54,220 bases of DNA from Catajapyx aquilonaris (Eukaryota), in NCBI GenBank assembly GCA_000934665.2, contig JYFJ02000731.1:62001-116220 (forward strand). Direction: 5' to 3'. The position numbers and the translations under genes were made by a program. The notes beneath the pieces were generated by a model. The model did not search any database. It worked only from the letters and a program-made list of their open reading frames with translations, and was not told the origin of the DNA. Shown here piece by piece: positions 1,449-45,880 of this stretch; within the stretch, counting starts at the first letter, position 1; every line of letters starts with the position of its first letter.

Positions 1449-8475
<7,027 letters not shown>

Positions 8476-13626: not shown

Positions 13627-13738
<112 letters not shown>

Positions 13739-13819
13739 GCTAGGCACCAACTTGCCAAAATATGGCCAAAAATTAGGCAAAAGTGCGAAAGTGGAGAGGA
13801 CAGAGAGGCAGCAGCATCA

Positions 13820-14079: not shown

Positions 14080-14094
14080 GCGGCATTTAATAAC

Positions 14095-14176
<82 letters not shown>

Positions 14177-14219
14177 ATTATTATTATTATTATTATTGTT
14201 GTTGTTATTATTATTATTA

Positions 14220-14251
<32 letters not shown>

Positions 14252-14266
14252 GTTGTTGTTGTTGTT
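14095..14266. repeat. Compound microsatellite (GAT)n(TAT/TGT)n
   Basis: Directly visible. Confidence 0.95.
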
Positions 14267-25141: not shown

Positions 25142-25949
25142 TCACCTTTCTGGGACGCATGTGTCCAGTACGAAGTGCCACTTCATACCCTGAGGGCATT
25201 CTTCACCTTCCGTCAGGGCTCTGACCTCCCTGCAACCTCCCAGCTCATCGTAAACCATTCCTCTGGGGCAGCTGGTCCTCCAAGCAGTCTCAATAAGGAT
25301 CGGGTAGCAGTTGTAACACTGTGAATACATTGGCATTATTGCACATATTTTTGCTGACATCAACTTCCAATTCTTACAAGTACATCATAAACACATGTCG
25401 CTGCGAGGTATCCGTCAAGGTGAAGAGTGTAATGCTCTTCACAAGGGCCTCGTTTGGACGGCTCGTAGCAGGTTCCATCTTTGAGTATTTGTCCTGCTTC
25501 CGGCTGGCTTGAATTGTAGCATGGATCTGATTGACATTCAAGATGAGTCTCACTGTTGTCCAACGACAGGCGATGACCCAAGTCGCAGGGGCCCTGTTGA
25601 TATTACAATGTCAGTTTGTGCTACACCGATAAATAATTAAACTTGCCTGGGAGTTGATTTTGTAGCATTGTCTTTGTTGCGGCCAGTACACTAAGATGGA
25701 ATGCCAGACCCAGAACACGTCATCTGTGATGCATCTGCACTCTCCGTACATTCCATCACCAATTGCGATGAACTTGACCGACTTCCTTCCACATGGTCCA
25801 GTCGATTCCACCCGGTAGCACTCACCAGTCACCAAGTCAACTCTGTGGTCAGCAGGGTAACCACGTTCTTCACAAGTCCGGTTGTCCTCACCGGTTGCGG
25901 ACGCAGTGAACAATATAGCAAAAATAAGGTGTAGTGCAATATGCGCCAT
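25142..25949 (-). CDS. Secreted Cys-rich DUF4789-like protein, copy A, 231 aa, 3 exons
   Basis: Exons 25647-25949, 25378-25593, 25142-25318; the first intron is GC-AG. Signal peptide MAHIALHLIFAILFTASATG, repeated CY-x(4-5)-GPC units, YWP..RQCY, CPRGMVY..LGGCRE. Confidence 0.8.
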
Positions 25950-26128
25950 GCTCTTGCTAACTGTTGGGCAGCAGCAGGTGCTCATTAAGCAAACAGAAAA
26001 ACAGGTTTTTCGCACTGGGCAAGGTCATAACTTTTGCAAGGTACAAAAAGTTGAAGGTTGGCTCTGGAGCGTGTAGAGCATATATTTATTATAGTACTAA
26101 TTACACTGTAATTTTCACAGCATCCTCG

Positions 26129-26856
26129 TTAGGCCGCATCCACACAAGTTTCACTGACTGGATTCCACCTAGTGCCCTTGGAGCAGAGGCCTTCTCCGAA
26201 TGATCTGGTCTCCCTGCAGCCTCCCAGACTGGCCGTGAAGACCATACCTGGAGGACAGATGACATTTGGCAATACCAGTTGGACATACGGTATGGTGATG
26301 TTATAGCACATTCCCTCAGGAAGTCCATTCAATCTGACAGCCTGGTCATCCTCGCATGGACCTCTCTCTCCTTCAGTGTAGCATGTTCCGTTTAACAGAA
26401 CCTGTTGGCGAGGTTGGCTGGGGTCATAGCAGGGGTCAGGTCGACACTCCCCTTGACCTGTTGGGGTCGGTGTGAACAGATGACCTCTCTCGCATGGACC
26501 CTGCCGGTATTAAACAAAGGAGGCAAACAAATAGCTTCAAGTTGACTGTCCAGTGTGTGACTGACCTTTGAGTTTGCCTTGTAGCACTGCCTCTCTGGTG
26601 GCCAGAAAGCGATGGTCACTTGGTCATAGTAAGTGGCGCAGAGACACTCTCCGCACATTCCGTACTCTCCAATCGGTCTGAACTGCACGTCCATATCGCC
26701 ACAGGGACCTTTTGTTCCTGGTTCGTAACAATGCCGACCTGTCATCACGTCCAATCTGAAGTTAGGAGGGTATCCTTGTTGTTGGCAGGACATCATCAAG
26801 AGTTGTCCAGTCACATGCGACAAGAGCAGGATGAGATAGTAAATAGGCAGATACAT
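26129..26856 (-). CDS. Secreted Cys-rich DUF4789-like protein, copy B, 220 aa, 2 exons
   Basis: Exons 26566-26856 and 26129-26500. Signal peptide MYLPIYYLILLLSHVTG and the same Cys framework as copy A. Confidence 0.82.
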
Positions 26857-27078
26857 TGCTGCTGGATGTCTGAGGAAGTACTGCACACGAATTAACGGGT
26901 TTTGGGCACGCTTATGATGACCTCAGCAGAGTCCTTCAAAGCAAGGGCAGAGAGCCAGAGACAAACCCGTTTGCGCATCAACTTTTATTCGGAAGATCTT
27001 TCCTACCCGACGAAATGGCGGGAGTAGGGGGGCAAAGCCACAATAACGTTGGTTGGTGCAGACTCATCATGACCTGAC

Positions 27079-27435
27079 CAGCTGGGAGCATATTATACTA
27101 ACATAAGAGGCGCAAACATTCGATTTCCACGTCTCTCTGTTTGGGGCCGTTGCCAATAAGGCTGGCGGCCATTTTGAAGTGGGGGCAACGCCAACGAGGT
27201 ACAAATAGGGTACAGGCAAAAATAAGGTCCGCCATCTTTTGGCGGCCATGGGAACTATACAAGGCAAGAACACGCGCGAATCAAAGATGGCGGACCCTAT
27301 TTTTGCCTGTAGTCTATTTATACCTCGTTGGCGTTGCCCCCACTTTAAAATGGCAGCCAGCCTTGGCAACGGTCCGAAACAGAGAGACGCGGAAATCGAA
27401 TGCTTGCGCCTCTTATATGTAGTATATGCTCCCTG
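27079..27435. mobile_element. P-like 7-bp-TSD element, copy 2, inserted into the 3' end of pseudogene C
   Basis: Same internal sequence as 17711-18053; flanks ACCTGAC / GCCTGAC. Confidence 0.8.
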
Positions 27436-27884
27436 GCCTGACCGTGAAGACCATCCCTGGAGGTCAGCTGACCTGGAGCCATTTGGGTGTTTTATTGGTG
27501 TTGTAGCATGTGACTTCCTGGTATCCTCTCTCCAAGAGGAAATGACCTTCCTCGCACGGACCTTGTTGGTATTCAGGGTAGCAGGTACCGTTGACTTTCA
27601 CCTGCTTCGGAGCCTCTGGTTGGCTGGGGTCGTAACAGGGGTCAGGTCTGCACACCAGGTGACCGCTGTGGGTTGGTGTCAAGAGATGACCTGAGTCGCA
27701 GGGACCCTGCAGAGAATTATTAGGACCAATGTTAGGTGCAAGATCTGGCCCATGATGGTCTGTTCCAAACCATGGTCCCTTGACGAGTCTGTATGAGACC
27801 CTATAAGACTGACCTTGTCGTTAATCAAGTAGCATTGTCGATGTGCTGGCCAGTGATGAGATATAGTACGCACGGTAGAGACAT
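27436..27884 (-). pseudogene. DUF4789-like copy C, disrupted
   Basis: ATG at 27884 (MSLPCVLYLI) runs via an apparent large deletion and frameshift into HWPAHRQCYLINDK|gtcagt. Exon 2 from 27706 has TGA (27464-27466) in place of the conserved Cys of CPPGMVFT and is then cut by a transposon. Confidence 0.8.
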
Positions 27885-28167
27885 CGCTCCTGCTGGATGT
27901 CTGAGAAAGTACTGCACAGGAATGAGCAGGCTTTGGGCACATTTATGATCCTTCAAAGCAAGGGCAGACAAACCCATCGTGCATACAGTCTGTTGATTAC
28001 GTAACTTTATTGCGCCTTTATTTTGAAGACATATTGCACTGTAGGCTTCCCTATTTGAGACAGAGTCGCACGATTGGAAGAATGACCTTAATCGTACATA
28101 AATTAAGTATGCAGAGTATGACCTCTGGTGAGCATGTCACTAAATAAAACGTATGTATCTATACAGC

Positions 28168-28883
28168 TTAGATGCAACTTTCTGTGACTGGATGCCACTT
28201 GGTACCAGGAGCACAGGCTCCATCCCCGAATGTCCTGGTCTCCCTGCAGCCTCCCAGGGTGTCTGTAAAGACCATTCCTGGAGGGCAGGTGACCTTTGGC
28301 AGAAGCAGGTTGACGAATGGACTGGTGCTGAGGCGGCAGAATCCTTTGGGATATCCTTCCATCGAGACGGTCTGACCTTCCTCGCATGGACCTCTCTCTC
28401 CTTCAGTGTAGCATGTTCCGTTTAACAGAACCTGTTGATGAGGTTGGCTGGGGTCATAGCAGGGGTCAGGTCGACACTCCCCTTGACCTGTTGGGGTCGG
28501 TGTGAACAGATGACCTCTCTCGCATGGACCCTGCCGGTATTAACAAAGGAGGCAAACAAAAGCGTCAAGTGATTGTCCAGTGTGTGACTGACCTTTGAGT
28601 TGATCCTGTAGCACTGCCTCTCTGGTGGCCAGTAAGCGATGGTCACTTGGTCATCATACGTGGCGCAAAGGCAGTCTCCGTACAATCTTTGATCTCCTAC
28701 CGTCACAAATAGCACCTCTTTATCGCCACAGGGACCTTTCCTTCCTGCTTCGTAACAATGCCGACCTGTCCTTATGTCCAGTCGGTAGTTAGATGGGTAG
28801 CCTTGTTGCTGGCAGGATAAGATTGGCACCAAGTAACGATGTCCAGCCACATACGACAAGAAGAGCAGGAAGATGAGATACAT
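28168..28883 (-). CDS. Secreted Cys-rich DUF4789-like protein, copy D, 217 aa (226 aa from the upstream ATG at 28910), 2 exons
   Basis: Exons 28593-28883 and 28168-28530. Signal peptide MYLIFLLFLSYVAG; close paralogue of copy B. Confidence 0.82.
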
Positions 28884-29215
28884 CGCTGCTTGATGTCTGA
28901 TGAGATACATCGCTGCTTCACGTCTGATGAGAAACTACTGGCCTTCTGGATGCGGTCAGTGCTCTTCTACAGCATGAACAGGTTTTAGACAAGATTACCT
29001 TCAAAAGAACCGCGGAGGTCAAATGTGATGGAAATTACCATCATTTTCATGTCGACGCTTTTGAAGTAGATTCATTCCCAATATTCTGTGTACCTACAGA
29101 GCAACAATCGCATTATGAAACTGATTTGTTTATTGCAGAAAAATAGCTTGATGTACATAGCAATGAATAAATACTCATTCGGTATGGATCAGTTTACATT
29201 AGTTGCTGGTATGAT

Positions 29216-29614
29216 TCAGTACAAACCACCACCGAAACCAAGTCCTCCCAGTCCAATATATCCTCCTCCAAGACCACCATATCCTCCGCCATACCCTCCT
29301 CCGAGTCCCCCGAATCCTCCGGAGTAGTTGGGTCCACTCTGCTTGATGTAGCTGACCCCATCCTTGTGCTTGTTGTTGACCACGTAGTAATAGGCGTGGT
29401 CATCTGCACCTGACTCCACCTGAGATGCACCGTAGGGTCCGGCTATGGCGTACCCGTACTGGCTTCGAACCCCGATCCCTGCATGGGCTCCACACAACAA
29501 GGCAGCCAGAAGAAGAACGAACACCTGTGCAAATAATAATTGGCAATCATGTCAATAATTTAAAGCAAAATATTATTACACAAATTGGTATGACCAACTT
29601 ACCTTAGCGATCAT
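29216..29614 (-). CDS. Small secreted Gly/Tyr-rich protein G1 (VNN family), 106 aa
   Basis: Micro-exon 29603-29614 (MIAK|gtaagt) plus exon 29216-29524. Signal peptide, GGY/GGL repeats, TATAAAAA at 29665-29672 (minus). Confidence 0.88.
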
Positions 29615-30882
29615 TGTTGCTTGGAGGTTTAATTGCCAATGGACAAAATGCGCGATTCGGACACTTTTTATAGTGGGTCTCTCAGTTAGGTCTGCAAGGT
29701 CATCTAACATTGCGAAAATTCATCGGAGCCAGGCAGATACGATTTATTATCGGGGCGTGAAGTGATTTGAAAAGGATTGTTTGACTGGACAATGTCCAGC
29801 ACTTAATGTGTTTTTAACCTACATTTTAGTGGAGGAAAAAAAATGATGCAATATATTTGGCGAATTTTTGGCAGTGTTATTAAGCAGTTCTTCCGAAGCA
29901 ATGAAAAGTGCACTAATTTTTTGGCGCCCCCTTTTGCTGCTTGGTGCATATAAACAAAGATTCGCATTTTCACTTGCTTCTCATTAAACTGATTGTTAAG
30001 CAGACCACAATTTTTCCTTCCTCATGTCCTCTTGCATAATGCTAAATTATGTCAGCATAAAGTGGAAAGCAATTATCATAATTACAGGCGTGTGTATATA
30101 TTCTTTCGGGCCCGTAAATGTTTTATAGGTTACTCCAGTCTTGCTCTGAATATTTAAATGCACATTACATGTATAGCATTATAATTTTTTCGCCTATAAT
30201 AAGGCAGGACACGCAGTAATAATGGATCAAGACTAATATACTTTGAATTTGGCCCAGTTTGAAGTGTGGTCGTCCTTTTGATGGAGAGTCATTTTCTTGC
30301 CTGAATTTTTGTTTGACAACTTGATATTTTTGATTTGAATTGGCTCCCATGTTATAATTAATGGTTTCTAATAATCAAAAGTTACGTTTTCGATTTTCTG
30401 TAATTTATTTGTGCATCGGTATGGTGCGTTTTCCTCGTTTTCTTTTATTTTTTATGGGCAATCAGACACGCGTGTGTGAGTGAGCAAGCAGAGTTAGGTA
30501 AAACTATAAGGTGTGTATATGGGCTTCCTGCTTTAAGGCCGGATGAACATGATTACCTAAGCAATAAGAGGGTTGTACGCATATCAGAATCGCCCCCCTT
30601 CCAAACCTGGAGAGAGAGATCTAGGAAAAAGCCGAACGATCACGCGGAAGGGAACTAACGAGAAAATGCGAAATAACTACGCTCTCTCTCACTCACTTCT
30701 GCCCAATAATATTACTTGGTTCTTATTTCTCTATCTCTCACACCCCTCCTACACCCCCCTTCAAAAAAAAATTCGGAGATAAAAAGAAGGCTGATCAGTC
30801 AAGATGCACAGTTCAACATCAGGAGCGGTTCATATCTCATCTTGAAAAAGTGATCAAAAGGAGCTATACACAAAAAGCAGTC

Positions 30883-31499
30883 ATGGTGTGCCTTAGGAAT
30901 CTGGTGAGTTTGGATCACATTGATTTGAGATTTATTGGCAATGTAATAGATCAGGGTCAATAATTTGGCATTCAAATGGGAACAAACGGGAATGAGCTGG
31001 ACATTCTGGACAGATCCAGGCAACAAAATAATTCTCCAGCGTTTTAATCACCATAGCTTCTAATAATTACAGTTATTACTTAAAAGTAATTCCACAATAA
31101 TTTCTTTCAGGTTCTGGTGTGCATTGCTGTGTGCATACCCTTGATAGCATCCAAGCCTGTGCCTGACCCATCCTATGGAGTTGGCTTCGGAGGTTCGGGA
31201 TTGGCTGCAGCAGCACTTGCAGCTCCATTACTCTTCTCGATCCTTCCTTTTCTCTTCAAGGGAAGGGGCGAATCGCACAAAAAGTAAGTACAAGCACTAT
31301 TTTTTTTCAATTGCAATTTTGATATTTACTGCGCTTCAGTAATCAGGTTTTTGGGATGAAAAATAGTGAATTTATTTAGTAGTATCCCCCACTACAGTTT
31401 ATCCCATTTTTCCCCCCCAGGATCGTAAAGGAGCATTACATCCACCACAAGCCCACGGTGTACAACATCCACTACAAGGAGGAAAAGAAGAAGTGGTAA
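30883..31499 (+). CDS. Small secreted or membrane-associated protein H1, 90 aa, 3 exons (absent from the ORF track)
   Basis: Exons 30883-30903 (MVCLRNL), 31111-31283, 31421-31499: VLVCIAVCIPLIASKPVPDPSYGVGFGGSGLAAAALAAPLLFSILPFLFKGRGESHKKIVKEHYIHHKPTVYNIHYKEEKKKW. Same exon structure and phases as the paralogue at 41467-43448. Confidence 0.85.
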
Positions 31500-32121
31500 T
31501 CCATTAGTAGGCAACACCACAACATATTGCTCATCCAAGTGTGCCAGGAGCTTTTCCATGTGCAAAATATTTCAGCATCCAATAATCACAAAAAAAAACA
31601 ACATATGCATTACTCTCACCTAGCCTCTCTGTACCTGCAACACAATGTTTACCTATTTATGTGCTCAAGTTACAGGTGTGAATAAAATTATGGCTGTATC
31701 TCACAACTATATACTCTTGTTATTAACCTGCAAGCATATACCAATATTACATTATTTACTTACACATTGGAACAAATATAGTGACTCTGATTGGCCAGCA
31801 CAGCACAATTAAGTTGCATAAAAATGAGATGATAAGTGCGGGTAATGAGTTGGTAATAATAATAATGTTATTCCCCCGTGACAAGCGGTGCAATGTATGT
31901 TTTCACTTTCACCTCCGGATCAACTAGGCGTGTATCCTGCCCTTGACTTTCAAAATTGCTTCTCGCTGTACCAACCAACCCGCTCTGCTTGGACGATTAT
32001 TTTGCAATTTTCTTGTAAATCAAGACACAATGGCAAACGGTCACCTATAAAAACCTACGGGACATTACACTGGTTTATCATTCGGATCTGTCTTCGTCTG
32101 TTGATCACATCTCCTGAAGAT

Positions 32122-32573
32122 ATGGGGCTTAGCGTAAGTCGTTAATATTTACTCATATTTTTTTTGCAAATTGACATGATTGCCAATTATTATTTGCACA
32201 GGTGTTCGTTCTTCTTCTGGCTGCCTTGTTGTGTGGAGCCCATGCAGGGATCGGGGTTCGAAGCCAGTACGGGTACGCCATAGCCGGACCCTACGGTGCA
32301 TCTCAGGTGGAGTCAGGTGCAGATGACCACGCCTATTACTTCGTGGTCAACAACAAGCACAAGGATGGGGTCAGCTACATCAAGCAGAGTGGACCCAACT
32401 ACTCCGGAGGATTTGGGGGACTCGGAGGAGGGTATGGCGGAGGATATGGGGGAGGATATGGCGGAGGATATGGCGGAGGCTATGGTGGTCTTGGAGGAGG
32501 CTATGGTGGTCTTGGAGGAGGCTATGGTGGTATTGGACTGGGAGGACTTGGATTCGGTGGTGGTCTGTACTGA
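32122..32573 (+). CDS. Small secreted Gly/Tyr-rich protein G2 (VNN family), 127 aa; inverted near-identical paralogue of G1
   Basis: Micro-exon 32122-32133 (MGLS|gtaagt) plus exon 32202-32573; TATAAAA at 32046. Confidence 0.88.
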
Positions 32574-33400
32574 ATCATACCAGCAACTAATGTAAACTGA
32601 TCCATGTGAACTATACCGAATGAGTATTATTTATTATAGCAAGCATGTTGTAAAGCAAGTCTTTGTTTCTGAAATAAACAAATCAGTGGCTTAAATTTGT
32701 ATCTTATTATGCGAGTGGTTGGTATAAGCTGAACAGATTGCTTGAGTGAACATAACCGTTTACCTTCCTCTCCTCTTGGGCTATAATATTATATGAACAC
32801 ATGGGTGAAGATTTGTGACTGTAAATAATGAGAACGAGATTCACACTTTCAATTCAGATTAACAATTAGGATCATTGTACAGGGTGATCCAAAATACGTG
32901 TCCGACTATTGTTATGGCGCACTATTGGATTCACATTGTGGAGTAATATGATGGAAATTGTTAGGGTTTGGTTTCCGCCCCCCGTTTAAAACTGTCTGTT
33001 TCTTTCAAAGAGAAATATATTGGCAATTTAAATACGGTCCTTATATGCTTGGTGTCACCATAATTATTAGGCCTAATACTTGTGATATGCAGTCAGCATT
33101 TGTCATTGTTGACAACATTCTCACATTTTTCTATGGTGCAGCAGGCCAAGAAGGCCACTCGCTTCGTTCGCTCTTTCTAGGCCTGCGGTCTGGGGTGGTG
33201 GAGGTCATATATTGTCAATCCTTCCAGACTTACAGCCAGTGATGATGCTCAGTTGCTCACCCCCCAATCATATATGCACCACCGCCCCCACCCCCATCCG
33301 TTCCTCTGTTTCAAGGTGGATTCACATATCGATGATTCCCATATTAGAAGCCGTTCAAAATTCGACCACAATTGATTATGCAATTGAATTTTCCATTATT

Positions 33401-33661
33401 GCAACGTTCCAAACAAAGGGTTGCCAACACGACAAGGTTCCAAACAAAGGGTCGCCAACAGACAGCGACGTTCCAAACAAAGGGTAGCCAACGCACAGCT
33501 AAGTTCCAAACAAAGGGTAGCCAACACACAGCAACGTTCCAAACAAAGGGTCGCCAACACACAGCACCGTTCCAAACAAAGGGTCGCCAACACACAGCAA
33601 CGTTCCAAACAAAGGGTCGCCAACACATCACAGCAACTTTCCAAACAAAGGGCTGCCAACA
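33401..33661. repeat. ~33-bp minisatellite, ~8 copies
   Basis: Unit acagcaacgttccaaacaaagggtcgccaacac. Confidence 0.92.
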
Positions 33662-34364
33662 TTTTTTTTTTCCACGTGTGTATGTGCATGATTAGCATTG
33701 GACATGTTCACCGTGTTTGTCCAAATGTCCGATTAACGTGACCATTGACACTCTGAGTAATAGAAGTAAGTGCTAACTAATTCTCATGAACGTTATTAAC
33801 ATACTATACAGTAAAACTTCTATAAGTTGAATCTCCATGGGACCAGGAAAAAACTTCGAGTTATAGAAGATTCGAGTTCTAAGAGAAGTTTGGAATTTTT
33901 AATGCACATAACTCTATAAGGAAGCCTGACCTTTATATCCAGCGACGAAAGGTGTTCATAACTTAAAAATAACTGTCATTATCACACTTACGATACAATG
34001 TTCCTCGTTGTTTTGTTGCAAGTAAATATCTCAGTGATGGACATTTGCCTATACTCTTAGATTCAAGGATTCAATTGTCACAATCGAGTCAAACACTTCT
34101 TTAGGAAATTGAGCCTTTCTGTACATGTGGCCTACTCTCGACCCTTCGGCTGATATTTTTTTTTTCATGGTATTTCAAAGATTGTGTAATGCTGCAAGTT
34201 ATTTTTATTATTCCTCGTCAGGTAGTGGTATACAAGTGGCCATTCGTAACTGTTCCAGTTAACAATACAACAACGCACACAGTTTCTGCAGGTCGTCCAA
34301 CAACAAAAAAATGGCCAGTGCCACGTTATTATATACACTTGGAGAAAAATGCGCCTCATCAAAA

Positions 34365-34700
34365 TCAGTAGTACGCTACTGGAGCGTATCCCCCGTATCC
34401 TCCGTACCCGTCGTACCCTCCATACCCTCCACCGTAACCTCCGCCGTACCCTCCGCCGTACCCTCCGTATGAACCGCCATGGATGTTCTTGTAGTATCCG
34501 GTCAGACTAGGGTTGTTTTGGTAGACGAGAGGGGTCAAGTGCTGGTTGTTGACCAGGTAGCCGTACTGGTAGTCATCGCCGTACGCCTTCACCTGGGTCG
34601 AACCCAGTGGTCCGACCGAAGAGTAGTACTTTTGCGTCACTTGCTTGGACACAGATCCGCATGGAAGAGACGCCAGTATGGCACCAACCAACACCAGCAT
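34365..34700 (-). CDS. Small secreted Gly/Tyr-rich protein G3 (VNN family), ~111 aa
   Basis: Acceptor atgcag| at 34703, then MLVLVGAILASLPCGSVS-KQVTQKYYSSVGPLGSTQVKAYGDDYQYGYLVNNQH...(GGY)n...APVAYY. No upstream coding micro-exon identified. Confidence 0.82.
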   Translation of the reverse strand: MLVLVGAILASLPCGSVSKQVTQKYYSSVGPLGSTQVKAYGDDYQYGYLVNNQHLTPLVYQNNPSLTGYYKNIHGGSYGGYGGGYGGGYGGGYGGYDGYGGYGGYAPVAYY

Positions 34701-35802
34701 TACCTGCATGTAAAAATACAGTATACAATGAATACTATAGCACTGGATTCGAATAGGAAACAGGACCCGTTCCGGAACCGGTCTACTTATTCTTGCTATT
34801 AACTTATTGTGCGGTTTCAGATTTGGCAATAGGAAGAATGATTTTACGACACACTATAAAGTACAGTTTACCTTATTGGCACCCATGTTGTGCTTGTTGG
34901 CTCGATTTCAACCAGAGGTGTAATGAATATGATGTGTGTATACTGTACGTACATGACTCCTTTTTATACAAAAAAATATTTGACCAATTCGAGCACAGCA
35001 CGTACTGGATTAATGTTTATTCCAGGAAGAAACGGTGGCGTAAAGATATTTTGTCAAATTTTCAAGGGTGTTTCCAAGAGCGTGCTGTGGATTGTTGTTG
35101 TTTATTGATGCGACGCGCAAATAAATTATTGCCGTATTTTTTTTTTGATCTAAATGTTTGTGTAACAGTTTTTACACTATGGTTTCATAATGAGGAAATC
35201 GGTTTAACCAGAGGATTATTGTCAAATAAAAAAAAGATGCTAAATATCCTGGCAGGTATGCATCCCTCCAATCGGCAATATATTTTTCGATTTATTACTC
35301 CACAATTTTAATTTTAATTGTAACTCATTAGATGGAGCAACACTTTCCAAGGCGATGGAAGTGTCATAGGCTGCATCCACCAAATAGGAGATGCTATGCC
35401 CTGAATACAACTTTCAAGCTATAATCTGATTCGTTATATGAAACAGTCCAATTCCGCACTATGCATTTATAGCGTATTTAAATTTTTTTTTGTAAACTGC
35501 TGAAGGATCACACAGATAACAATCGACTAAGTACATAGTATGTGCACGCACCATTTCGTACCACTGATATTTTTGCTAATTCACTGGCCATGTCTGCTAA
35601 CCTTGAATATAATTTTTTTTTTTCTTCTTCTTCAACTCCGGTGTATTTTTGGGCCTCATTTTTCCGCTAGTTTGACCTCAGAAGAAAGGTGTGACCAACC
35701 TATATAAATGTGGCCCCTACTGACTGCATGGTACTCACATACTCTTGGACAAATCCATTGGAAACAGCAGACTTCGCCCAGTACTTTCAACACTTCTCGA
35801 AA

Positions 35803-36252
35803 ATGGCCACTCTGCAGGTAAATAACCAATAATAATTTATTGAACTGAAATTTTCCATAGTTGATATACATACAATACAATCATGTCTATATGAAAATGT
35901 TGACAAGTTGCAAAATATTTTCGACTTTGAGTCTCACCAGTTGCAATAATCATTCTGGATTTCACAACATTTTATTAGCTAGCCTTTTGTATAGCAAATA
36001 CTATTATGCATCGTACTGTAGGCTACATGAAAGTATCTTTTGTATAATTATAGTTTTGTTGGTTGACTTATTCTCTTTCTTGTGGTCATTTTCCAGGTTC
36101 TTATCTTGGTCTTGGTTGCCATGCTGCTTCTGGCTGCTGGTTCGATCCAGGCTGTGCCAATCTTCCCATACGCCTACGGGATGTACGGAGGGTACGGCAT
36201 GTACGGCGGGTACGGAGGGTACGGAATGGGAATGGGATACGGGATGTGGTAA
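35803..36252 (+). CDS. Tiny secreted Gly/Tyr/Met-rich peptide Y1, 56-aa precursor (absent from the ORF track)
   Basis: Exons 35803-35817 (MATLQ) and 36097-36252: VLILVLVAMLLLAAGSIQA-VPIFPYAYGMYGGYGMYGGYGGYGMGMGYGMW. TATATAAA at 35701. Confidence 0.88.
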
Positions 36253-36676
36253 CAATAATAACGGCCCTGTTTTGTAAAACGTTTCACAAGCATATGATTC
36301 GTTATACTGGACACGACGGACTATGACAATTATTTCAAATGGCATTATGCTTTACGCAATGATTGTATTAATCCTACTTTAACAATAAACACTGTAGCAT
36401 TGATATGTTGTTGTCTATACGCTATCCACCTTTTTGTTATTTAGAAAACACGAAATGAAACTGACGGCATTATTTGACTTTCCTCCGCAATGAGAAAAAG
36501 TCTACTCGAATCACGCTCCCAATCTTGTTTCGCTTCTAGTGCTGCCTTTGAATTCAAACGTAAATGATTCAATGAAATAAAATTCAATGCGCAATTGGCA
36601 TTCACTTTTATTCAATTCAGAATTCGACAGTACAAGAAAGATCTTCGGAAACTGTTTATCACACGAGCCCATGCTA

Positions 36677-38377
36677 TTATTTCTTCTGGTCTTTTGTGGG
36701 GATGGGCAACTGGGCGGAGCTGGTGACCTGCAGGTGTGGCCCCAGGCTTTGACCTGGGTCGCTGGGATCCTCTGGGATGTGGCCGATGGGGAACCTGGCA
36801 GAGCTGGTGACCTGGAGGTGTGGTCCCAGCAGCCGTTGATGACCAGAACTTACTGGAGATGGAGTGACTTGTGGGAAGATGGCAGAGCTGGTGACCTGCA
36901 TGTGAGGCCCTCTTATGATGCCTGCTGTCACAGATCTCTGTGAGGCGCAGCAATCGCACTTTTGACCCCACTCGTGTGAGCACATCCTGCTGGACTTCTT
37001 AACGTTCATCTTCCCCTCGACCATGTCTGGCAGGAGATACGATTCAACCAGACCTAGAGTGCGACCTCTCTCTACCTGCCATACCGAGCCGGTCTTTCCT
37101 TCGCGGACAGCACGAACCACCGTCGAACCCACTTCTTCCATTCTGCAATAATTGAGGCGATTATCAGGCAAAACAATGGGTGCACTTACGACTTACTTAC
37201 TCGATCGACAACTGTCCGTTGCAGTGAGTCTTCGTGATCTGGTTCAACTCCGGGTCATCCCAGATCCCATCCTTCTGCGTGTAACCCTTGTCGATTGGTC
37301 CTGCACACACACCCATGATCCGTACTCCGTGGTTCATGTGGTGGACGTCGTGCTGTTGTGAGGAAGCAATGCCATTTTGTTAGTCCTAAAGTGCATAAAA
37401 TGACTTCCACCACAAGATGACTGACCGCCATGCATCTGGTGAAGGTTACCACTCCGGTGTTGGATGCTGAGTAAACTGGAAGCATGGCCAGGGGTCGGAC
37501 TGCCAATGTGGAAGCCACGTTCACGATGGTTCCTCCTGGTCCTCCTCTGTTGAGAGCCAGTATTTCCAGGGCCGCGTACGTACCTCGAATGGCTCCTGAC
37601 TGAAACGACACCAGATGACAGGCACTTACGTAACCCTATCGAGTTTTACGTAACTCGAAGCCATCATTGTTTTACGTAAGTCGAGGCTACGTAAGTCGAT
37701 GCTACGTAAGTCGATGCTACGTAAGTCGAGACTACGTAAGTCGATGCTACGTAAGTCGAGACTACGTAAGTCGAGACTACGTAAGTCGAGACTACGTAAG
37801 TCGATGCTACGTAAGTCGATGCTACGTAAGTCGAGACTACGTAAGTCGAGACTACGTAAGTCGATGCTACGTAAGTCGAGACTACGTAAGTCGAGGCTAC
37901 GTAAGTCGGGGCTGCGTAAGTCGGGGCTACGTAAGTCGGGGACTACCTGTATTATTTAGCTACTGACCAGGCTGAGGTCGACCGTCTTTTCCCAGTCTGT
38001 TTCGGTGGCCATGCGAGCTATGTTGACCACCACGTCCACAGGCAAGCTAAATGCGTTCATTGCCAGCTCCAGGGCCACTGGATGGATAATTTAAAAAGAA
38101 AAATGTTATTACTATAGGCCATGACATTGTATTGAGGATGATGCTGACCCTTGAGGAGTCGAGGTGTGAAGACGTCTCCTTGGAAGAATCTGACCCTGCT
38201 CTTTCCGTATCTTCCGCCCAACACTTTGCAGACGTTTCTTCCAGCCTCTGCGTTCGTGTCGCAGATGATGACCCTGCTAGTTTCCTTCAGGAATGCCTCG
38301 GCGATGGCCACTCCGAGAGCGTCGGCGCTGATCACCACCACCACTTTCGGGTCCTTAGACGAGTCATCCATGCTCAT
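36677..38377 (-). CDS. Short-chain dehydrogenase, 15-hydroxyprostaglandin dehydrogenase/insect ADH-like, atypical active site, 376 aa, 5 exons
   Basis: Exons 38149-38377, 37968-38077, 37426-37599, 37201-37352, 36677-37142, all phase-consistent. VDVVVNIA..ETDWEKTVDLSL, RGTYAALE..NRGGPGGTIVNVAS, PVYSAS, GVRIMGVCAG parallel the HPGD segments. Confidence 0.85.
37673..37945. repeat. 15-bp minisatellite (~18 copies) in SDR intron 2
   Basis: Unit CTACGTAAGTCGA(TG/GA). Confidence 0.95.
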
Positions 38378-38861
38378 GTATTCTGTCTTCTAAATTTGGA
38401 TGCTGGCTCAATATAATTTTTTAAAAAATATGTAACAACCACTTTGTGATGGCCTGGAATGAAATGTTTACACAGTACCTGGACAACCGTCAAGCTGGAG
38501 AAGAAAAAAAATAATGGAAGCAAGGTGCCAACATTGGCACCTTGCTTCCATTATTATTTTTTTTACGTCAAAAGTTTTCCCCATTTGGGGAAAATTTTTG
38601 ACGTCAGAAGCCGTTATTTAATTACTCACATTTTCTGATTAGACAGGGGAAAAAAATCATTTTATTCCAATAATTGCATGCTCTATATGCTTGAGATATG
38701 TCAAAGTGGAATGAATATAAACAAGTACTTGTGCTTAGCAATGTTTATTGAATAGGTGCGCATACATCATTGCCTAAAAGCATGACACATACAATCATGT
38801 CATTGATAAGTAAGTAGATTCCGCATCAAGTTAGTCCCATCATGTGATGTCACCCGGAAGG

Positions 38862-39149
38862 TTACCACATCCCGCCGTATCCGCCGTATCCGCCGTACCC
38901 GCCGTACATGCCGTACAGTCCCTTCATTCCGTACATACCGTAAGGCATGATGGGCACAGCTTGGATTGAAGCCAGCAGCACAATCATGATGGCCACCAGA
39001 GCAAACAGGAACTGGAACTGGGCACACACACACACACACAATAATTACTTTTCAAATTTGAATGCAGATTATTATGGATGAAAATACATTGTTGGCATCC
39101 TGCCTAAGGAATAACAATGAAAACCAATATGGCTTACCTGTGCGCCCAT
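38862..39149 (-). CDS. Tiny secreted Gly/Tyr/Met-rich peptide Y2, 55-aa precursor, paralogue of Y1 (absent from the ORF track)
   Basis: Exons 39138-39149 (MGAQ) and 38862-39017 (alternative in-frame acceptor at 39011): FQFLFALVAIMIVLLASIQA-VPIMPYGMYGMKGLYGMYGGYGGYGGYGGMW. TATAAAA at 39242-39248 (minus). Confidence 0.88.
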
Positions 39150-40559
39150 TGTTGCTGTCAGAAGGATTATCTTTGGTGTTGTTATGTTGTCTCTTCACAA
39201 GCTCAGAAATGTGTTGGTTTGCTCTGGTTGAGACAGGTTCCTTTTATATTACACAAAATCACAATTTTTTTTTTTTTGCCAAATGGTGGAGAAAGGTCGT
39301 CAAGGACAATTTTCAAAAAAAAAAAAGTTTAGCTGTTCATGGGTTGCCAGTCATGGGATACCTATTTAAAGATAAATTTATGCATGATTCGGTCCAAATG
39401 TCGGTCGATCGGAACAGGAAAAAAAAGTGTTGACGTCGACTTGTTTACTCCATTTTTCAGCCTTCACAAACATGAAGTTATATTGTCAAATGCAACCTGC
39501 TAATAAGAGTTCTGGAGCGGAAATGTCTAATTATTCCATCTATTATAGCAGAACTTCTTTAGAAGAAGAAAAAAAAAATCCGACTTTTTTTTTGCATGTT
39601 ATTTCGGTTCTCTGAATGAGTGTCCATCAGTGCGAGGGACATTCAAAAAGTTTTTTGTTAAAACAAAATATAAATATGGTTCCCTTCATAATAAGGTCGG
39701 CTTTCACAGCAAGTGACATAGTGTGTGAGTTACGGAGAGTAAATTTTTTAAAAAATACAGTTTGTTCACATTATTTTAAGCTTATCATATACCCGTGCCA
39801 TTAAAATCATTGCGAATTATCACATGTGCACTTACATATCTTGGAAATTGCTGAAATTTATTTGTAAATTCTATATGCAATTTTCATTATGTGCATGCCA
39901 ATTAAATCCAAATAAGTGGATTACCGTATGTGATTTCAATACATCAATAATATTTTGCAGATAGAGTTGATCCTCTTCTACTTACGTAATGAAACCATCC
40001 CGTAAAAAGAATATAAGCAGATGATGTGTCTATGGATGCAAATTTTTTAAATCGGAAATTACAAAATCATAGATTTTATTTTAATTTGAATTGGTGCAAC
40101 ATAACCAGCGTCATTAATTTACGGCCATTGAGACGCTGCATTAGCACCTAGAATACAATAAAAAAATTTAACAACAGTTGAAAAAAAAAATGATTGCCAC
40201 ATATCGAGCATGACGTTTCCTGACACCTAAGCCGCAACCGACATTGTTGCACTTAATGCACTTAATACGGATGAAACCCCACTGACCTAGTGCAATTTAT
40301 TGTGTTAAGTCACAAACCGTGTCTATCTACCACTTCAAGCTACTTAATAATCCAATGCGATATATAAGACATGGTCAGTAACTTAAAATAATAAGTTTTG
40401 CCGGATTTTCCTGGTGGCAATGCTTTGGGCGACGACGACCTTACGAATTTTTTGAAGTATGAAAATATATCGGACGGCTATAAAAATCAGTGCAAATTGC
40501 AACAAGCTTCACATTCATCTGCGGTTTTGCCAGAAGAGTATATAGGCTGCTGATTGACG

Positions 40560-40907
40560 ATGGGATTCAAGGTAAGGTTGATCTCAGTTTCGTGCTTTTG
40601 ACTATTGTTGGTATGTCAATAAGTATAGTCCATATTGTTATGTTCACAGACAATAATATTGGTGGCGTGTGTTATGGCCATGTTTCTGGTGATGAGCATC
40701 CAAGCAGGGGAAAGCATCACAGGACGGCAGTACAAGTACGGCCAATCCGTCGGGCATCGCGGCGGCGCCTCCGAATACGACTCTTACCGCGAGAGGAACA
40801 TGTACCCTGGGTACCACCAAGTGAACAACCAGTACCTGCAACGTGGCACCAGCAAGACCACTCAGTACAAGACAAAACCTCTAGGAGGCTGGGCTGAATA
40901 TTCCTGA
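40560..40907 (+). CDS. Small secreted Tyr-rich protein G6 (divergent VNN-family member lacking the Gly tail), 89 aa
   Basis: Exons 40560-40571 (MGFK) and 40650-40907. Signal peptide ending SIQA; QYKYGQSVGHRGGASEY...GYHQVNNQY; TATAAAA at 40479. Confidence 0.85.
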
Positions 40908-41466
40908 ACCGGATAGATTTTCAGGAGAGAAAAAAACCCGTGACGAATTGACCCTTGTTTCCAACTCTTAATAAAAATGTGCAGCAAATATTTTCGGCAG
41001 AATTTACTTTACTTTCTCCTGATATGCTTATTATCTCCGTCTGATGTTTGTACGACCTGATATTATCGCTAGCTCTCACATGCCCTGATGTTGGTAGGAG
41101 TGTGCAGACAGTGTGCGCCATCTGTGCGTGAAAAACAGTACTGCGTGGTAAATTGGCGGGCCATCTCATTAAAGTTGGTTGTTTCTGTCATGCTGATTAT
41201 GGGTTTTGGCAAATTTTGGATTTAATTATTTTTCATCGAATTTTGGCCAGTTCAAGCCAATCTGTTCCAACAACACGACCAGTTAGTCCCGGGAATTATG
41301 TGTTTATTATTAGTCTGACATATCCAACAGTGAAATAATATACAATAATAATGGTGCACTGTACAAAAAGAAAACACACTCTTTTGCCCATCCAAACGGG
41401 CCAGTCCATTCACTCAACACCCTCTGAACGCTTTGGATCGCAACCGACCGCAGCTACGTCACTTGC

Positions 41467-43448
41467 TCAGAGCCAATAGCCGCCGCCGCTGCTTCCACCG
41501 CCGCCACCGCCACCGCCATGTCCACCGCCGCCACCGCCGCCGCCATGTCCACCGCCGCCATGTCCACCGCCGCCGCCACCGCCGCCATGCCCGCCGCTGC
41601 TGCCACCACCCTTTCCTCCGAAATGCAGGTTGAACACCTCAGGCTTATGATGGACGTGATGAGTCTTGATTATGCTATGGAGTAACACGAAACATGTTTA
41701 ACCAATCGGAAGAATCCACGATTTAAAACTGTCCACTTCGTACCACTACCCTTCAATAGATGGCGCATCCACCCTCTCTACACAATACTGCCAATATGCG
41801 AGGAGTGTTGGTACTACACTTAACACTTACGTTTTGTGACCTCCGCCTCTCTGCCTTCCCTGGAAGAGCAAGGGCAAGAGGGCAAAGGCCAGGGGCGCTG
41901 CGAGGGCCAACCCCGCGGCGGCCCCACCTCCTGCTCCGAACCCTCCTGCCACAGCCCCATGACCCGTCGGTACAGGGTTCGATGCTATCAGAGGTATCGC
42001 CACTGCTAACGACACCAGAATCTGAAGAAGAAAAAATGTTCAATTACTAATAAATTACCAATTGCACAAAAAAAAGAGGTTCAACTATTATGCGATTCAC
42101 GAGTCCTGGCCTGTTAGGCTCCTCCCCCGTCCTCCGCCCTCTGAAGGCGAGGTTGCCACGTTCGCGTCCGCCATGGCCTCACACGCCTGCCAGGAGGATG
42201 GGGGAGAGCACTTGGCAGCAGTGGATCGCATTGGGGGGGGGGGACACAACCAGGCCTGGANAGGCCTGGAAATACGACGATCCACCTATCCCTTGTTGAG
42301 ACCGAACCCCGCACCAATGGCTCCTACTCGCGAGAATCACGAGCATTCCAAGCCTGATTTCTCCCGCCGCTGACGCTGGGAGGAGGTGGGTGGAGCCTAA
42401 CAGGCCAGGACTCGTGAATCGCATAATAACAGATTTGAACAATTATTAATTGCATGTCCGAGGGAAAAAATTATTGAAGGAAAAAATCCTGATATAGGCC
42501 TACACCAGGGACCTTGCTGTTTCTCCTACCTTCTTAACTGGCAGTTAAAGTTAAGTGCAGGGTAAGTTAATATGTTACTTAAAGTGCTATTAGTAGTCTA
42601 GGTATACTTAATTAAATAAATAAGTTGCCAGTTTCTTTCCTAGTCATCAAACAATTTTAATATGATATAATAATATTCTACCATCAAAATGAACCACTTT
42701 TGGACCACTATACTCCCATCAATAACGACAAAAAAAAATTTGCCACTTTCTCTGTACACGTCGTGTCTTATAACATCAGGTAACAGAGAAAACTGTCACT
42801 TTTCACACACACTTTTTAAAATGTGTGATACAAATCATTTTGATTGGACCACAAAAAAAAAGTCGTTACTCTACTTTTCCCCCTATATTATAGCTCGAGT
42901 GGAATTAAATTGAATTATTGTATAATTGCGGTAGCAAAATCCTGTGTGTGTATATAGTTGAAGGCCTTCTTACTTGAGACGTTGCATTGGCAACCCTGGT
43001 CTCACATGACCATCTGCTAATAACGTTACTTGTACAGTAGGTACAATACTTAGTCGCCTACTAAACTTTTTGGTAAGAAAGGTCTTCAATTACTTGCCAA
43101 GAAGTTAAAGACTCAGTGTTGACTCTAGCAACCTTTGCTGCAATGATATTGACCACTATTGTGCTGGAGTTAACAACCTTCAACTTTCCATCACTTCATT
43201 TTTGAGAGGAAATTTACCAAACCTGACCCGGTTCCGAACCTGGTCCACTATATCTGATTGCCCACAGATTCCACTGATGACCAAATTATCTGTGCTAATA
43301 GTGGACCAGGTTCGGAACCTGGTACACTATCTGATTGCCCAGTTCAGAGTTCACTTGTGCCAATAGTGGACCAGGTTCCGAACTGGGTCCGGTTTCCTCC
43401 CTTTTTCCGGCTCACTGTATGACTTACCAGATTCTTAGCGCACACCAT
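41467..43448 (-). CDS. Small secreted protein H2 with a His/Gly-rich tail, 139 aa, 3 exons, paralogue of H1
   Basis: Exons 43428-43448 (MVCAKNL), 41831-42021, 41467-41674: ...GLALAAPLAFALLPLLFQGR...HKTIIKTHHVHHKPEVFNLHFGGKGGG(HGGGG)n..YWL. Confidence 0.87.
42089..42425. mobile_element. MITE with a perfect ~34-bp TIR in intron 1 of H2
   Basis: TATGCGATTCACGAGTCCTGGCCTGTTAGGCTCC ... GGAGCCTAACAGGCCAGGACTCGTGAATCGCATA. Confidence 0.85.
43222..43392. repeat. Two tandem hairpin units (GAACCTGGTCCACTA...TAGTGGACCAGGTTC)
   Basis: Direct and inverted repeats are visible; related to short GGTTCCGGAACGGGTCC motifs elsewhere in the window. Confidence 0.65.
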
Positions 43449-45880
43449 TGTTGTAATACACCTTGAGCAGTACACACTCTCCAGATGAGAACCTGAGTTT
43501 GAATGTGCATCATGTTCCAATCGGACCTGTTTTTATCCTAATTGTGCTTGGTGGGTGGGTGGCAGGGGGTGGTGGGGGAGGGAAAAGAAAGAAAGAGCGA
43601 TAATTTTGCGGGCGAATTTTGTGAGAGCGATAACTTTAAAAAAAAAAAAAAGAGGCAAGACCTATATTTTTTTGTTGCACACAATTTTGTTCTTCCGCGT
43701 GATCCAACTTTCGAGGAGTGGATATGCTCCGGAGGAATCTTAAACTTTCAGTGGGCAATGCTCACCCATCCTTGCCCACTGCACTGGAGTAATTAGCACT
43801 TTAGCTAAGAAGGTAGGTGGGAAGGGGGGGGGGGATGGAATTAAAGCATTACGTAGGGTGCGGCTGCCAGTATTGCAGGGTTTAAAAAAATGCATTTGGC
43901 AGGGGTTTACGACATTGCTTAATTGCACATACTCCATTTTAAAAAAATAAAAATAATGAAGAAAAAAAAAATGTTGCTTCCTGCTGGAGAGTTGGATTGG
44001 TCCCCGTGGAAAGTTTTCCGATTCGAAAGTGACTATCAAGGTTCAGAGGGATTCGGGAAGCAATCTTGGTGACCGTCGCGGACCATTGGCTACGTTAATG
44101 TTTTTTTTTAAAATTTATATATTTTTTTTAAAATGTTTCTGTGGTCGAATTTGTGCGAAGAAACACGAAGAAGAAAAGTTATCGTACGTAATATTAGGTG
44201 TTACATTCATATCGAACCACAGACCGGAAGAGATTTTGATAATAAAATTATTTACAGGGTGCATGGTTGCTGGCGTCAACAATCCAAATCATGACCAACA
44301 CTGTCAACAATCATATAAATACCACATAAGGAATTTTTATTGAGTAACAGTAATGTACGCATAATAAGATATTGCAGCAGGTTTTTATTTCGCTACCGAT
44401 TCGCTACAGTATGCTTATTAAAAAAAAGTGAAAGATTTATGACTCGCATATCTTTGCTGAAAGTATATGGGATAGCGTTGCAAAAATAATTTCTGCAAAA
44501 TATACAGTTAATGCGGTTTGAAAATATAAGGCCACTGCATTTGATATCGAAATCGTTGAAATTGTTTGTTTCCTGTAATTGTTAAAATTAAACCATCTGT
44601 TTGTCGCATTGAAGTTTTATTCAAGTTGTCAACCTTTTGGACAGTGTCCAGCTGCACGTGCGCCTCATATACCTTTGGTATATACAGTATATGAACACAT
44701 TGTGCGTAATATTGTGATGGGGGTAGGTTGCATCATGTGAAATTGTGTGCAAATTAAAATGCACATAGCGAGAGGTAGTGTTTTCTCCCTCAGTGTCTCA
44801 TTACCTGGCGCTGCACCTGTCGGAATCATTAGCAGTAACCATGCAATTAAGACTTATTACCTGACTGTTACGTGTCGCTCGTATAATAACTAGACTGGAA
44901 TATTTTTTTTTAAAAAAAATCTCGGTTGCGATTGCGGTGCATGACCAGTGACTAATTATTCTTTCGCATGCTCTTTTGCTGCATTCATGGTGTCCATTAA
45001 TTCTGGTTATTTATTTTTGGCATCTGGTTAAGTAATTACGTCGTGCACTATCCGCAAGGTATATAGTTGAAGGCCTTCTTATACTTGAGACTTACACTCG
45101 GATATTGCTTAGTTTCCTGAAGAAGAAAAATTACTATCACGTTTAATGCATTTTTTTTACATAATAATTATTTTTAGCTGCCGTGTTTATGACTTTCTTT
45201 AATTGCAGACTGTTCGTTTTTATATCACCCTATATATAATATGTGACAAAGCGTTGAAGTAGCTGACATGCGATGGTGTGGTAAAAACCTCGTGCGATTC
45301 TCGCCCTTGGACTTAATCGCGTGTCCTGCATGGCAAGCATGCGAGGTTAAAATTAATTACGGAATTGATCCCTATACTCTGGGGGGCCCGCACTGTGGTG
45401 GTGGTGGTCACTTTGCGACAAACCGCTTGGCCATTCCGCGAAAATGCTGTCAATTTTATGGAGGTCTCCGGAGGTATATTGTAGGGTAGTGGGGAAGGCT
45501 AGACATGTCATCATCATCGGGTGACTCGCAAGTTGCACACAGCTGCAGTAAGCAAGCAAGCAAGCCATGCGTGCTGATGTTGCAGCTGGTCAGCTGGTCA
45601 AGACTGATGGTCAGTCTCCAGTCTCCTGCTCTATAAGGACCTTGATGGACTTGGCGATGCAAAAGGATGAGGTTTCTCATTAGGGTGTGAGTGACGCGTG
45701 GTGTCACAAGCATTGCAGGAGACGACTTGTCCTCATCCTCTAGCTGGACATCGCACACCCAGCATCAGCCACCCCCCTCCAAAAAAATATCTCTCTTGGT
45801 TTGGAGGAAGTAGCATTCGCTTCTGGTGGCTCGTTCCAGATAGGACACACCTTAGCAGCATCAAACTATCCAGCACAACT

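Follow-up and report, generated by a model that had tools for sequence, protein, structure and literature searches.

A cluster of eight small genes of three families in Catajapyx aquilonaris, possibly encoding structural extracellular-matrix proteins

A compact cluster of eight small genes belonging to three apparently unrelated families, referred to as G, H and Y, is present in a stretch of 54,220 nucleotides from Catajapyx aquilonaris (assembly GCA_000934665.2, contig JYFJ02000731.1, positions 62,001 to 116,220 of the forward strand; the whole stretch is called the window, and all positions are counted from its first letter). The eight genes lie within 14.2 kb. They are complete and real, and their products bear signal peptides, are free of cysteine and are largely rich in glycine and tyrosine, in agreement with an original prediction drawn from the nucleotide letters. 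We propose, with a probability of about one half, that these genes encode lineage-restricted structural proteins of an extracellular matrix, which might be the cuticle or some other secretion that hardens, e.g., eggshell or cement. A structural role of this kind fits best because the architecture of the genes is that of mosquito cuticular-protein genes; the eggshell, cuticle or cement locus originally suggested was reasonable, but the analogy with chorion and the pairing of the genes had been over-read. The gene structures, the conservation among paralogues, the composition of the products and the lack of known domains were established directly.

The order and the strands of the genes, G1(-) H1(+) G2(+) G3(-) Y1(+) SDR(-) Y2(-) G6(+) H2(-), were confirmed from the gene models, the SDR gene (36677..38389, -; exon boundaries approximate) being a context gene at the centre of the locus. 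Among the G genes, G1 (29216..29614, -) consists of exon 1 at 29614-29603, encoding MIAK, an intron of 78 nt (GTAAGT..CAG, frame intact) and exon 2 at 29524-29216; G2 (32122..32573, +) of exon 1 at 32122-32133 (MGLS), a 68-nt intron and exon 2 at 32202-32573; G3 (34365..34886, -) of exon 1 at 34886-34872 (MGANK), a 168-nt intron and exon 2 at 34703-34365; and G6 (40560..40907, +) of exon 1 at 40560-40571 (MGFK), a 78-nt intron and exon 2 at 40650-40907. The two Y genes have the same design, with exon 1 at 35803-35817 (MATLQ), an intron of 279 nt and exon 2 at 36097-36252 in Y1 (35803..36252, +), and exon 1 at 39149-39138 (MGAQ), an intron of 120 nt and exon 2 at 39017-38862 in Y2 (38862..39149, -). 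In both H genes an extra phase-2 intron occurs at one and the same place, and there are three exons in all. H1, which together with its upstream element occupies 30638..31499 (+), has exons at 30883-30903 (MVCLRNL), 31111-31283 (phase-2 donor) and 31421-31499; H2, again with its upstream element (41467..43704, -), has exons at 43448-43428 (MVCAKNL), 42021-41831 (phase-2 donor) and 41674-41467, the first two separated by an intron of 1406 nt.

After exon 1, all eight genes show a GT donor, an intron that measures 68-279 nt (but 1406 nt in H2) and a (C/T)AG acceptor, and exon 2 carries on the hydrophobic core of the signal peptide. The original prediction had recognised a first coding exon of 12-21 nt splitting the signal peptide; the pattern stood, but its count did not, as it was found in eight genes out of eight (12, 21, 12, 15, 15, 12, 12 and 21 nt in locus order) rather than in seven. 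H2 shares it too, with an exon 1 located at the end coordinate of the predicted interval and identical to that of H1 at 18 of 21 bases (strings compared by eye). The signal peptides have N-terminal Kyte-Doolittle means of 1.7-2.7, with small residues at -3/-1 judged by eye. All the spliced frames are open over 55-139 codons, with a terminal stop and no internal one, and their translations end, as predicted, with LY, KW, LY, YY, MW, MW, YS and YWL.

Each gene is also a predicted transcription unit of its own, with a TATA box or a similar element, followed by a mini first exon and a short intron and closed by a polyadenylation signal. A TATA[AT]A box is located 58-102 nt 5' of the ATG in six of the eight genes (TATAAAAA, 58 nt 5' of the ATG, in G1), while the promoters of H1 and H2 have the TATA-like GATAAAAA in common; CAACAATG is the start context of four genes, and AATAAA is found 63-183 nt 3' of the stop codon in every case (82 nt in G1). 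A self-comparison of the region from 29 to 44 kb revealed that the DNA similarity between paralogues is limited to the exons and a few dozen flanking bases. The ratio of nonsynonymous to synonymous substitution rates (dN/dS) is 0.05 for G1/G2 (six synonymous differences and one nonsynonymous), 0.19 for G1/G3, 0.43 for G3/G6, 0.35 for Y1/Y2 and 0.21 for exon 2 of H1/H2, values that come from small samples, with silent sites saturated in the older pairs. When the whole window was scanned on both strands for the gene pattern (ATG mini-exon, GT donor, AG acceptor, hydrophobic start and an open reading frame (ORF) of at least 30 codons), 11 matches were obtained, all of them on seven of these genes and none elsewhere, H2 being missed as it falls just below the cut-off for hydrophobicity; in 20 first-order Markov simulations scanned alike, the matches averaged 0.8 (range 0-5). 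Windows of 20 residues rich in Gly and Tyr occur only in G1-G3, Y1 and Y2, once the microsatellite frames are set aside. Moreover, tyrosine is encoded by TAC in 42 of 44 cases in G3, G6, Y1 and Y2 vs 8 of 16 in six neighbouring gene pieces, a strong preference that would be compatible with high expression. It might be argued that there is no real feature here, only chance ORFs of low-complexity DNA or dead gene copies, and the Gly/Tyr tails are in fact encoded by short tandem DNA repeats. However, the integrity of all eight frames, the canonical splice sites, the start context and the polyadenylation signals, the exon-limited conservation with dN/dS values below 0.5, and a gene pattern that occurs nowhere else in the window and seldom in simulations speak against such an origin, which is effectively excluded.

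The G family is characterised by a common core, some 50 residues long, in which V-N-N is invariant. The G1 precursor has 106 amino acids (aa), its mature part of about 87 aa being formed by a VVNN core followed by a GGY/GGL tail; G2 (127 aa) repeats G1 exon 2 almost exactly, its Gly/Tyr tail being longer, G3 (117 aa) combines an LVNN core with a (GGY)n tail, and G6 (89 aa), a basic protein (+4), has QVNN in its core and lacks a Gly-rich tail. G1 and G2 share 99% identity over the aligned part, the tails differing in length, and G1 and G3 share 45% (z of 10.3 for the core, a score reached by 0 of 2000 shuffles). The identity of G6 with G1 and G3 is 26-28%, with z values of 4.3 and 3.6 and with 2 and 12 of 2000 shuffles reaching the score. 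Since these z values are only moderate, G6 is a probable rather than a certain member, so that the family originally defined by the VNN signature holds for G1-G3, but the kinship of G6 is moderate only.

G1 and G2 are embedded in an inverted tract (left arm 29120..29573, partner 32155-32687) showing, in a self-blastn comparison, 81% identity over 536 columns, the shortfall being mainly due to a repeat-length indel. The tract spans exon 2, about 49 nt of the intron and about 95 nt of the 3' flank, and excludes exon 1 and the promoter. Exon 2 and its short flanks have been duplicated or homogenised (converted) between two genes whose first exons and promoters differ. A 33-nt tandem repeat (7.9 copies, 33401-33661) lies between G2 and G3.

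The Y genes encode the smallest products. The Y1 precursor (56 aa) gives a 32-aa mature peptide of Gly, Tyr and Met with no charged residue, and the Y2 precursor has 55 aa. The two are 67% identical, with at most one charged residue in mature peptides of 31-32 residues, and their DNA similarity is limited to exon 2. In Y2 a tandem CAGTTCCAG acceptor is present (CAG at 39017/39011, -), and splicing at the downstream CAG would remove FQ from the signal peptide. The signal peptides of Y1, Y2 and G6 (36097-36153, 38961-39017 and 40650-40706) all end with S-I-Q-A before the predicted cleavage site; this may reflect a shared origin of the signal-peptide part of the exon in the Y and G families, although without statistical support (G6 vs Y1 region, E 0.51).

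As for the H family, H1 encodes a 90-aa precursor ending with KKKW and H2 a 139-aa precursor with a 45-residue Gly/His run that closes with YWL. They are 65% identical in exon 2, share the motif [IV]K.H..HHKP.V[YF]N.H[YF] in exon 3, and both have a His-rich tail. Each also contains a second hydrophobic segment of 19 residues, with a Kyte-Doolittle mean of 2.24 (H1) and 2.17 (H2), followed by basic residues and including two prolines and an AAPL motif. The classical threshold for a membrane span is about 1.6, and the segment could therefore cross the membrane, in which case the H products may be membrane-anchored instead of secreted. Because of this segment, the description of the eight as tiny secreted genes, well founded as far as the signal peptides are concerned, is not safe for H1 and H2.

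The promoters of the two H genes contain colinear conserved blocks, which include GATAAAAA and a block with CA(G/T)T. In addition, the 13-mer GATCACGCGGAAG occurs only twice in the window, at 30638-30650 (+) and 43704-43692 (-), where 0.03 occurrences would be expected by chance; in gene orientation it starts 245 nt (H1) and 256 nt (H2) 5' of the ATG, and it is a candidate family-specific regulatory element. The H2 copy falls beyond the right border of the interval originally predicted. Intron 1 of H2 hosts an insert (42086..42428) of 343 nt that resembles a miniature transposon, its terminal inverted repeats of 50 nt being 94% complementary; a single N is found inside it at 42261, and inverted repeats of 26-33 nt are nested just downstream of H2 exon 1 (43219-43395).

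None of the eight mature proteins contains Cys; Gly accounts for 27-44% of the residues in six of them (27-43% in G1-G3 and Y1-Y2) and for 10-15% in H1 and G6, and Tyr for 14-25% in G1-G3, G6, Y1 and Y2. The net charge is 0 to +1 in G1-G3, Y1 and Y2 and +4 to +5 in G6, H1 and H2. On inspection of the translations, no neuropeptide-type sites (KR, RR or GKR flanking repeated peptides) were found and basic runs are present only at the C-termini of the H products; a reading of the genes as neuropeptide precursors was rejected for this lack of processing sites.

The comparison with arthropod cuticular-protein genes is the one that most favours a structural role. In Anopheles, the signal peptide is interrupted in 86% of the intron-bearing cuticular-protein genes, the first exons measure 3-36 nt (median and mode 12), a TATA box together with an initiator (INR) is found in 93% of the genes, and near-identical proteins are distinguished by their untranslated regions (PMC2259329). 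According to a second study, most genes of the CPR group contain a single intron, located after the signal peptide's first codons, and gene conversion has occurred among neighbouring CPR genes with coding repeats (PMC2793513). The present locus shares with these genes a first exon of about 12 nt splitting the signal peptide (12-21 nt in eight genes out of eight), a short intron, the TATA box (six out of eight, with the TATA-like GATAAAAA in H1 and H2), clustering, probable gene conversion between neighbours close to coding repeats, and Cys-free products; the near-identical G1 and G2 differ in exon 1 and promoter, as the mosquito genes do in their untranslated regions. AAPL, found in both H1 and H2, is a variant of the AAP(A/V) cuticular repeat that occurs in a quarter of Anopheles CPRs (PMC2259329). 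The same source points out that this gene architecture is not unique to CPR genes.

A second term of comparison is provided by Drosophila clusters of 3-10 genes for very low-complexity, Gly- or Pro-rich secreted proteins, for which a structural role was suggested; their products have no Pfam domain, are devoid of Cys outside the signal peptide and show no recognisable homology among themselves, and the absence of Cys is regarded as a hallmark of cuticular proteins (PMC2932725). With at least three genes per ~10 kb, signal peptides, Gly-rich low-complexity sequence, no Pfam domain and Cys-free mature proteins, the present locus fits this description point by point. Differently from the Drosophila clusters, three families alternate here in mirror order, H1 and H2 include a segment resembling a membrane span, and Met abounds in the Y peptides. 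The locus is not surprising in kind, similar unnamed clusters having been noted in Drosophila in 2010, while the particular G and H families appear to have no detectable relatives.

Several results weigh against a structural role. The hmmscan of the nine exon translations of the eight genes against Pfam-A (E <= 1; H1 and H2 scanned exon by exon) matched no family, although the scan covers the models for R&R (PF00379), chorion, Tweedle, CPF, Cuticle_1/3, Retinin_C, CPCFC and GYR/YLP (PF02756, PF02757), the presence of which was derived from the scope of Pfam-A and from the accession numbers in PMC2932725. The Y peptides have only 31-32 residues, with 16% Met, far above the 0.4% of mature Anopheles CPRs (PMC2259329). 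If the genes are compared at the promoter level, 148 8-mers (not of low complexity, one mismatch allowed) are common to at least seven of the eight promoters vs 71-245 in 30 shuffles, that is, without enrichment. The AlphaFold2 model of G1, obtained from a four-row alignment, is unreliable (mean pLDDT 42.5) and supports neither a fold nor disorder. Finally, every cluster resembling G3 in the Atlas was of the arthropod cuticle-protein-like type, a weak lead toward cuticle proteins, with a best score of 0.83, below the 0.9 above which a match exceeds a lead.

As regards known relatives, the locus had been presented as a candidate undescribed one, and no assignment emerged for any of the three families from Pfam, nor for G and H from protein and metagenome searches. 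The lack of a Rebers-Riddiford (R&R) chitin-binding motif noticed in the original prediction was confirmed, PF00379 giving no match in the Pfam-A scan (E <= 1); for the same reason an R&R-like reading of the YYYVVNNKHKDGVSY core was rejected, the spacing in this core also differing from what we take to be the R&R consensus. The suggested hidden Markov model search with the non-repetitive G cores was carried out: a profile of the four cores, run with full HMMER on 1.84 billion representatives, yielded no credible relative. Its only match (E 1.5e-08), a 906-aa protein with repeats of about 113 residues, was confined to the signal-peptide and N-terminal part of the profile and was judged spurious because it involved only profile positions 8-39, in eight weak stretches, with no VNN core and no Gly/Tyr tail. 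The word-index protein search with the G1 core gave two candidates, neither of which scored, and a protein search with the H family gave none; the Atlas had no usable match for H. In the metagenome contigs, 400 pattern matches for G and 284 for H were retrieved, of which none was confirmed, and six peptide fragments of the Y, G and H families had no occurrence in the literature searched by sequence. As a control, the neighbouring OVCA2-like exon found 339 animal proteins at E <= 1e-10 (best matches: fish 53% identity, sea cucumber 48%, wasps 47%, abalone 45%), and the protein library is therefore not blind to animals; a close relative of this genome appears not to be represented within the searched length range.

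The arrangement of the genes deserves a separate discussion. Three head-to-head pairs, each formed by a VNN gene and a gene of another family, had been described with spacers of 1.1-1.4 kb; the pairs exist, but the ATG-to-ATG spacers are of 0.9-1.4 kb (G1/H1, 1268 nt; G3/Y1, 916 nt; Y2/G6, 1410 nt), and G2 and H2 are unpaired. The alignments of G and Y promoters revealed little alike beyond the TATA box. If G1 and G2 are left out, the remaining genes, H1(+) G3(-) Y1(+) [SDR] Y2(-) G6(+) H2(-), form an exact mirror in order and orientation, which a random placement of three genes would produce about once in 48 times (simple arithmetic). We infer that an inverted duplication of an ancestral triplet, H> <G Y>, took place around the SDR gene, G2 and G1 being later copies of a G gene; since the non-coding similarity between the two arms is gone, this history is read from the arrangement only. 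On this view G3/Y1 and Y2/G6, two of the three pairs, descend as mirror images from a single pair, so that the pairing is weak evidence for shared regulation, and the mirror duplication of the triplet explains the head-to-head pairs at least as well as regulation does.

Other explanations have to be weighed against a structural matrix. The genes might encode Gly/Tyr-rich host-defence or stress peptides, induced by infection or wounding in barrier epithelia and acting on microbes or as signals. Lineage-restricted, fast-evolving clusters of small secreted genes are typical of immune effectors, the glycine-rich antimicrobial peptides of arthropods being a further term of comparison, and several features of the locus would suit such a function, i.e., the size of the mature Y1 and Y2 peptides (31-32 residues of Gly, Tyr and Met, ending with Trp), the basic charge of G6, H1 and H2 (+4 to +5) and the fact that no structural domain was found in Pfam. 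Clusters of genes for tiny secreted Gly/Tyr-rich peptides are also known in Caenorhabditis elegans, namely NLP and CNC (caenacin) (PMC2453101), and these are what Y1 and Y2 resemble most in composition (Gly, Tyr, Met and a terminal Trp); the non-repetitive G and H cores have no known counterpart there. On the other hand, G1-G3, Y1 and Y2 have a charge of 0 to +1 and no amphipathic cationic segment, and this near neutrality, together with their richness in Gly and Tyr, makes them unlike typical cationic peptides; besides, the G proteins are 66-108 residues long with a conserved non-repetitive core, and the architecture based on a mini-exon and a TATA box is documented for cuticular-protein genes (PMC2259329). 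On balance, a host-defence role is the main rival, above all where the small Y peptides are concerned, although we regard it as unlikely.

A chorion-like eggshell locus, with divergent pairs co-expressed in follicle cells from shared bidirectional promoters, would account for the three head-to-head pairs, each composed of a G gene and a gene of another family, for the Gly/Tyr-rich arms and C-terminal aromatic residues, and for the short first exons, which silkmoth chorion genes also have. The analogy with silkmoth chorion A/B genes stands for these traits, PMC13409908 describing there head-to-head pairs of different families that share a "short bidirectional promoter" and encode small secreted proteins with Gly/Tyr-rich arms. 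It fails in others: no Pfam chorion match was obtained (E <= 1), and the mature proteins have no Cys, whereas in Hyalophora the chorion is held by disulfide cross-links between Cys-rich proteins (PMC13409908). A short shared promoter appears less likely as well, the spacers of 916-1410 nt separating genes each with its own TATA box, with no motif common to the promoters beyond what shuffles give. If G3/Y1 and Y2/G6 go back to the same pair by mirror duplication, their pairing can be inherited, and two genes, G2 and H2, are unpaired. A chorion-like locus thus has a small probability. Scarcely more probable is a different secretion (salivary, adhesive or from a silk gland) or a role outside any matrix, the H genes being in that case unrelated small membrane proteins lying in the cluster. 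Only position ties the three families together, the 19-residue segments of H1 and H2 (2.24 and 2.17) with their basic residues can span a membrane, and a tick cement protein is an example of a gland secretion using similar sequences (PMC11794139). Nevertheless, the three families have the same mini-exon design and occur once per arm in mirror order, so that they travelled, and perhaps function, together, and the hydrophobic stretch of H includes, besides two prolines, AAPL, a motif that is also known in secreted cuticular proteins (PMC2259329).

If the products are structural matrix proteins, as we favour, they would be routed into the secretory pathway by a signal peptide, the first 4-7 codons of which lie on exon 1. 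The Cys-free, near-neutral G and Y proteins would be largely disordered and might associate with themselves by means of Tyr, Phe, Leu or Met "stickers" placed at regular intervals in a Gly background, the matrix being then fixed by oxidative cross-linking of Tyr; the VNN core of about 50 residues in the G family might act as a binding or nucleation module. H1 and H2 could be either hydrophobic, His-rich components of the matrix or short type-I membrane proteins, whose tails could bind metals or quinones. We infer this scheme, from secretion, assembly and cross-linking to tissue and timing, from the sequences. A Gly-rich protein of tick cement undergoes phase separation via its aromatic and Arg residues and turns with age into a gel (PMC11794139), and such sequences can therefore build materials. 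This disordered protein, with its aromatic-driven condensation and hardening, might offer a mechanism for the G and Y tails too, with the difference that its Arg-aromatic cation-pi contacts matter, and the G and Y tails have almost no Arg. The high glycine-tyrosine keratin-associated proteins of mammals are likewise matrix proteins of very small size, rich in Gly and Tyr, whose genes form clustered multigene families, but they are analogous only. These proteins belong to the intracellular hair matrix, have no signal peptide, are restricted to mammals and are encoded by intronless genes. In its most ambitious form, the proposal would see the locus as a three-component kit for a hardened biomaterial, in which membrane-anchored, His-rich H proteins mark or nucleate the deposition site at the apical cell surface, G binds through the VNN core and polymerises through the Gly/Tyr tails, and Y provides Tyr/Met-rich fillers or cross-link donors, the H-G-Y triplet having been mirror-duplicated around a catalytically degenerate dehydrogenase, with no detectable relatives outside the lineage; taken as a whole, this picture should be considered improbable.

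The dehydrogenase in question is the central SDR gene, in which Pfam adh_short matches two ORF pieces and whose closest solved structures are the Drosophila photoreceptor dehydrogenase and 15-hydroxyprostaglandin dehydrogenase. The classical SDR motifs are TGxxxGxG, NNAG and the catalytic YxxxK. In the open ORF pieces of this gene the cofactor motif reads SADALGVA, followed up by NIAR and by a YSASN that aligns with YGATK of the Drosophila photoreceptor dehydrogenase; all three motifs look degenerate, and the protein may be catalytically dead. A 15-nt minisatellite, TACGTAAGTCGAGGC, is present in an SDR intron (17.7 copies, 37673-37938).

The window as a whole is animal DNA with compact genes. 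Pfam recognised in the neighbouring ORFs an adenylyl-cyclase N-terminus, a CRAL/TRIO domain, an FSH1/OVCA2 hydrolase and tandem Cys-rich DUF4789 genes, while the Rfam search of the whole window gave no match. The Cys-rich genes form a tandem array of secreted-looking products at 25611-28934 (-), just upstream of the cluster, with repeated ORF pairs sharing YRQGPCERGHLFTPTPTGQGECRPDPCYDPSQP. The array matches DUF4789 with 20.1-35.4 bits (curated cut-off 27) and, partially, peritrophin-A chitin-binding models; these chitin-binding-like neighbours may be a weak lead for a structural function of the cluster. Taken by themselves, the DUF4789 matches, the insect-type SDR and the architecture of the genes would suggest an arthropod. 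Very long trinucleotide microsatellites are located at 7529-7650 and 13600-14290 and would read, depending on the frame, as poly-Tyr, poly-Ile, poly-Leu, poly-Asn or poly-Met.

If the structural interpretation is true, three orphan families would join the poorly understood low-complexity, Tyr-rich matrix proteins that set the mechanical properties of invertebrate cuticles, eggshells and adhesives. With two diverged copies per family in mirror arms, the locus would represent a compact natural experiment, convenient for asking how such matrices assemble, e.g., by aromatic-driven condensation followed by oxidative cross-linking, whether a head-to-head pairing is regulatory or a relic of duplication, and how orphan low-complexity genes originate and persist under purifying selection.

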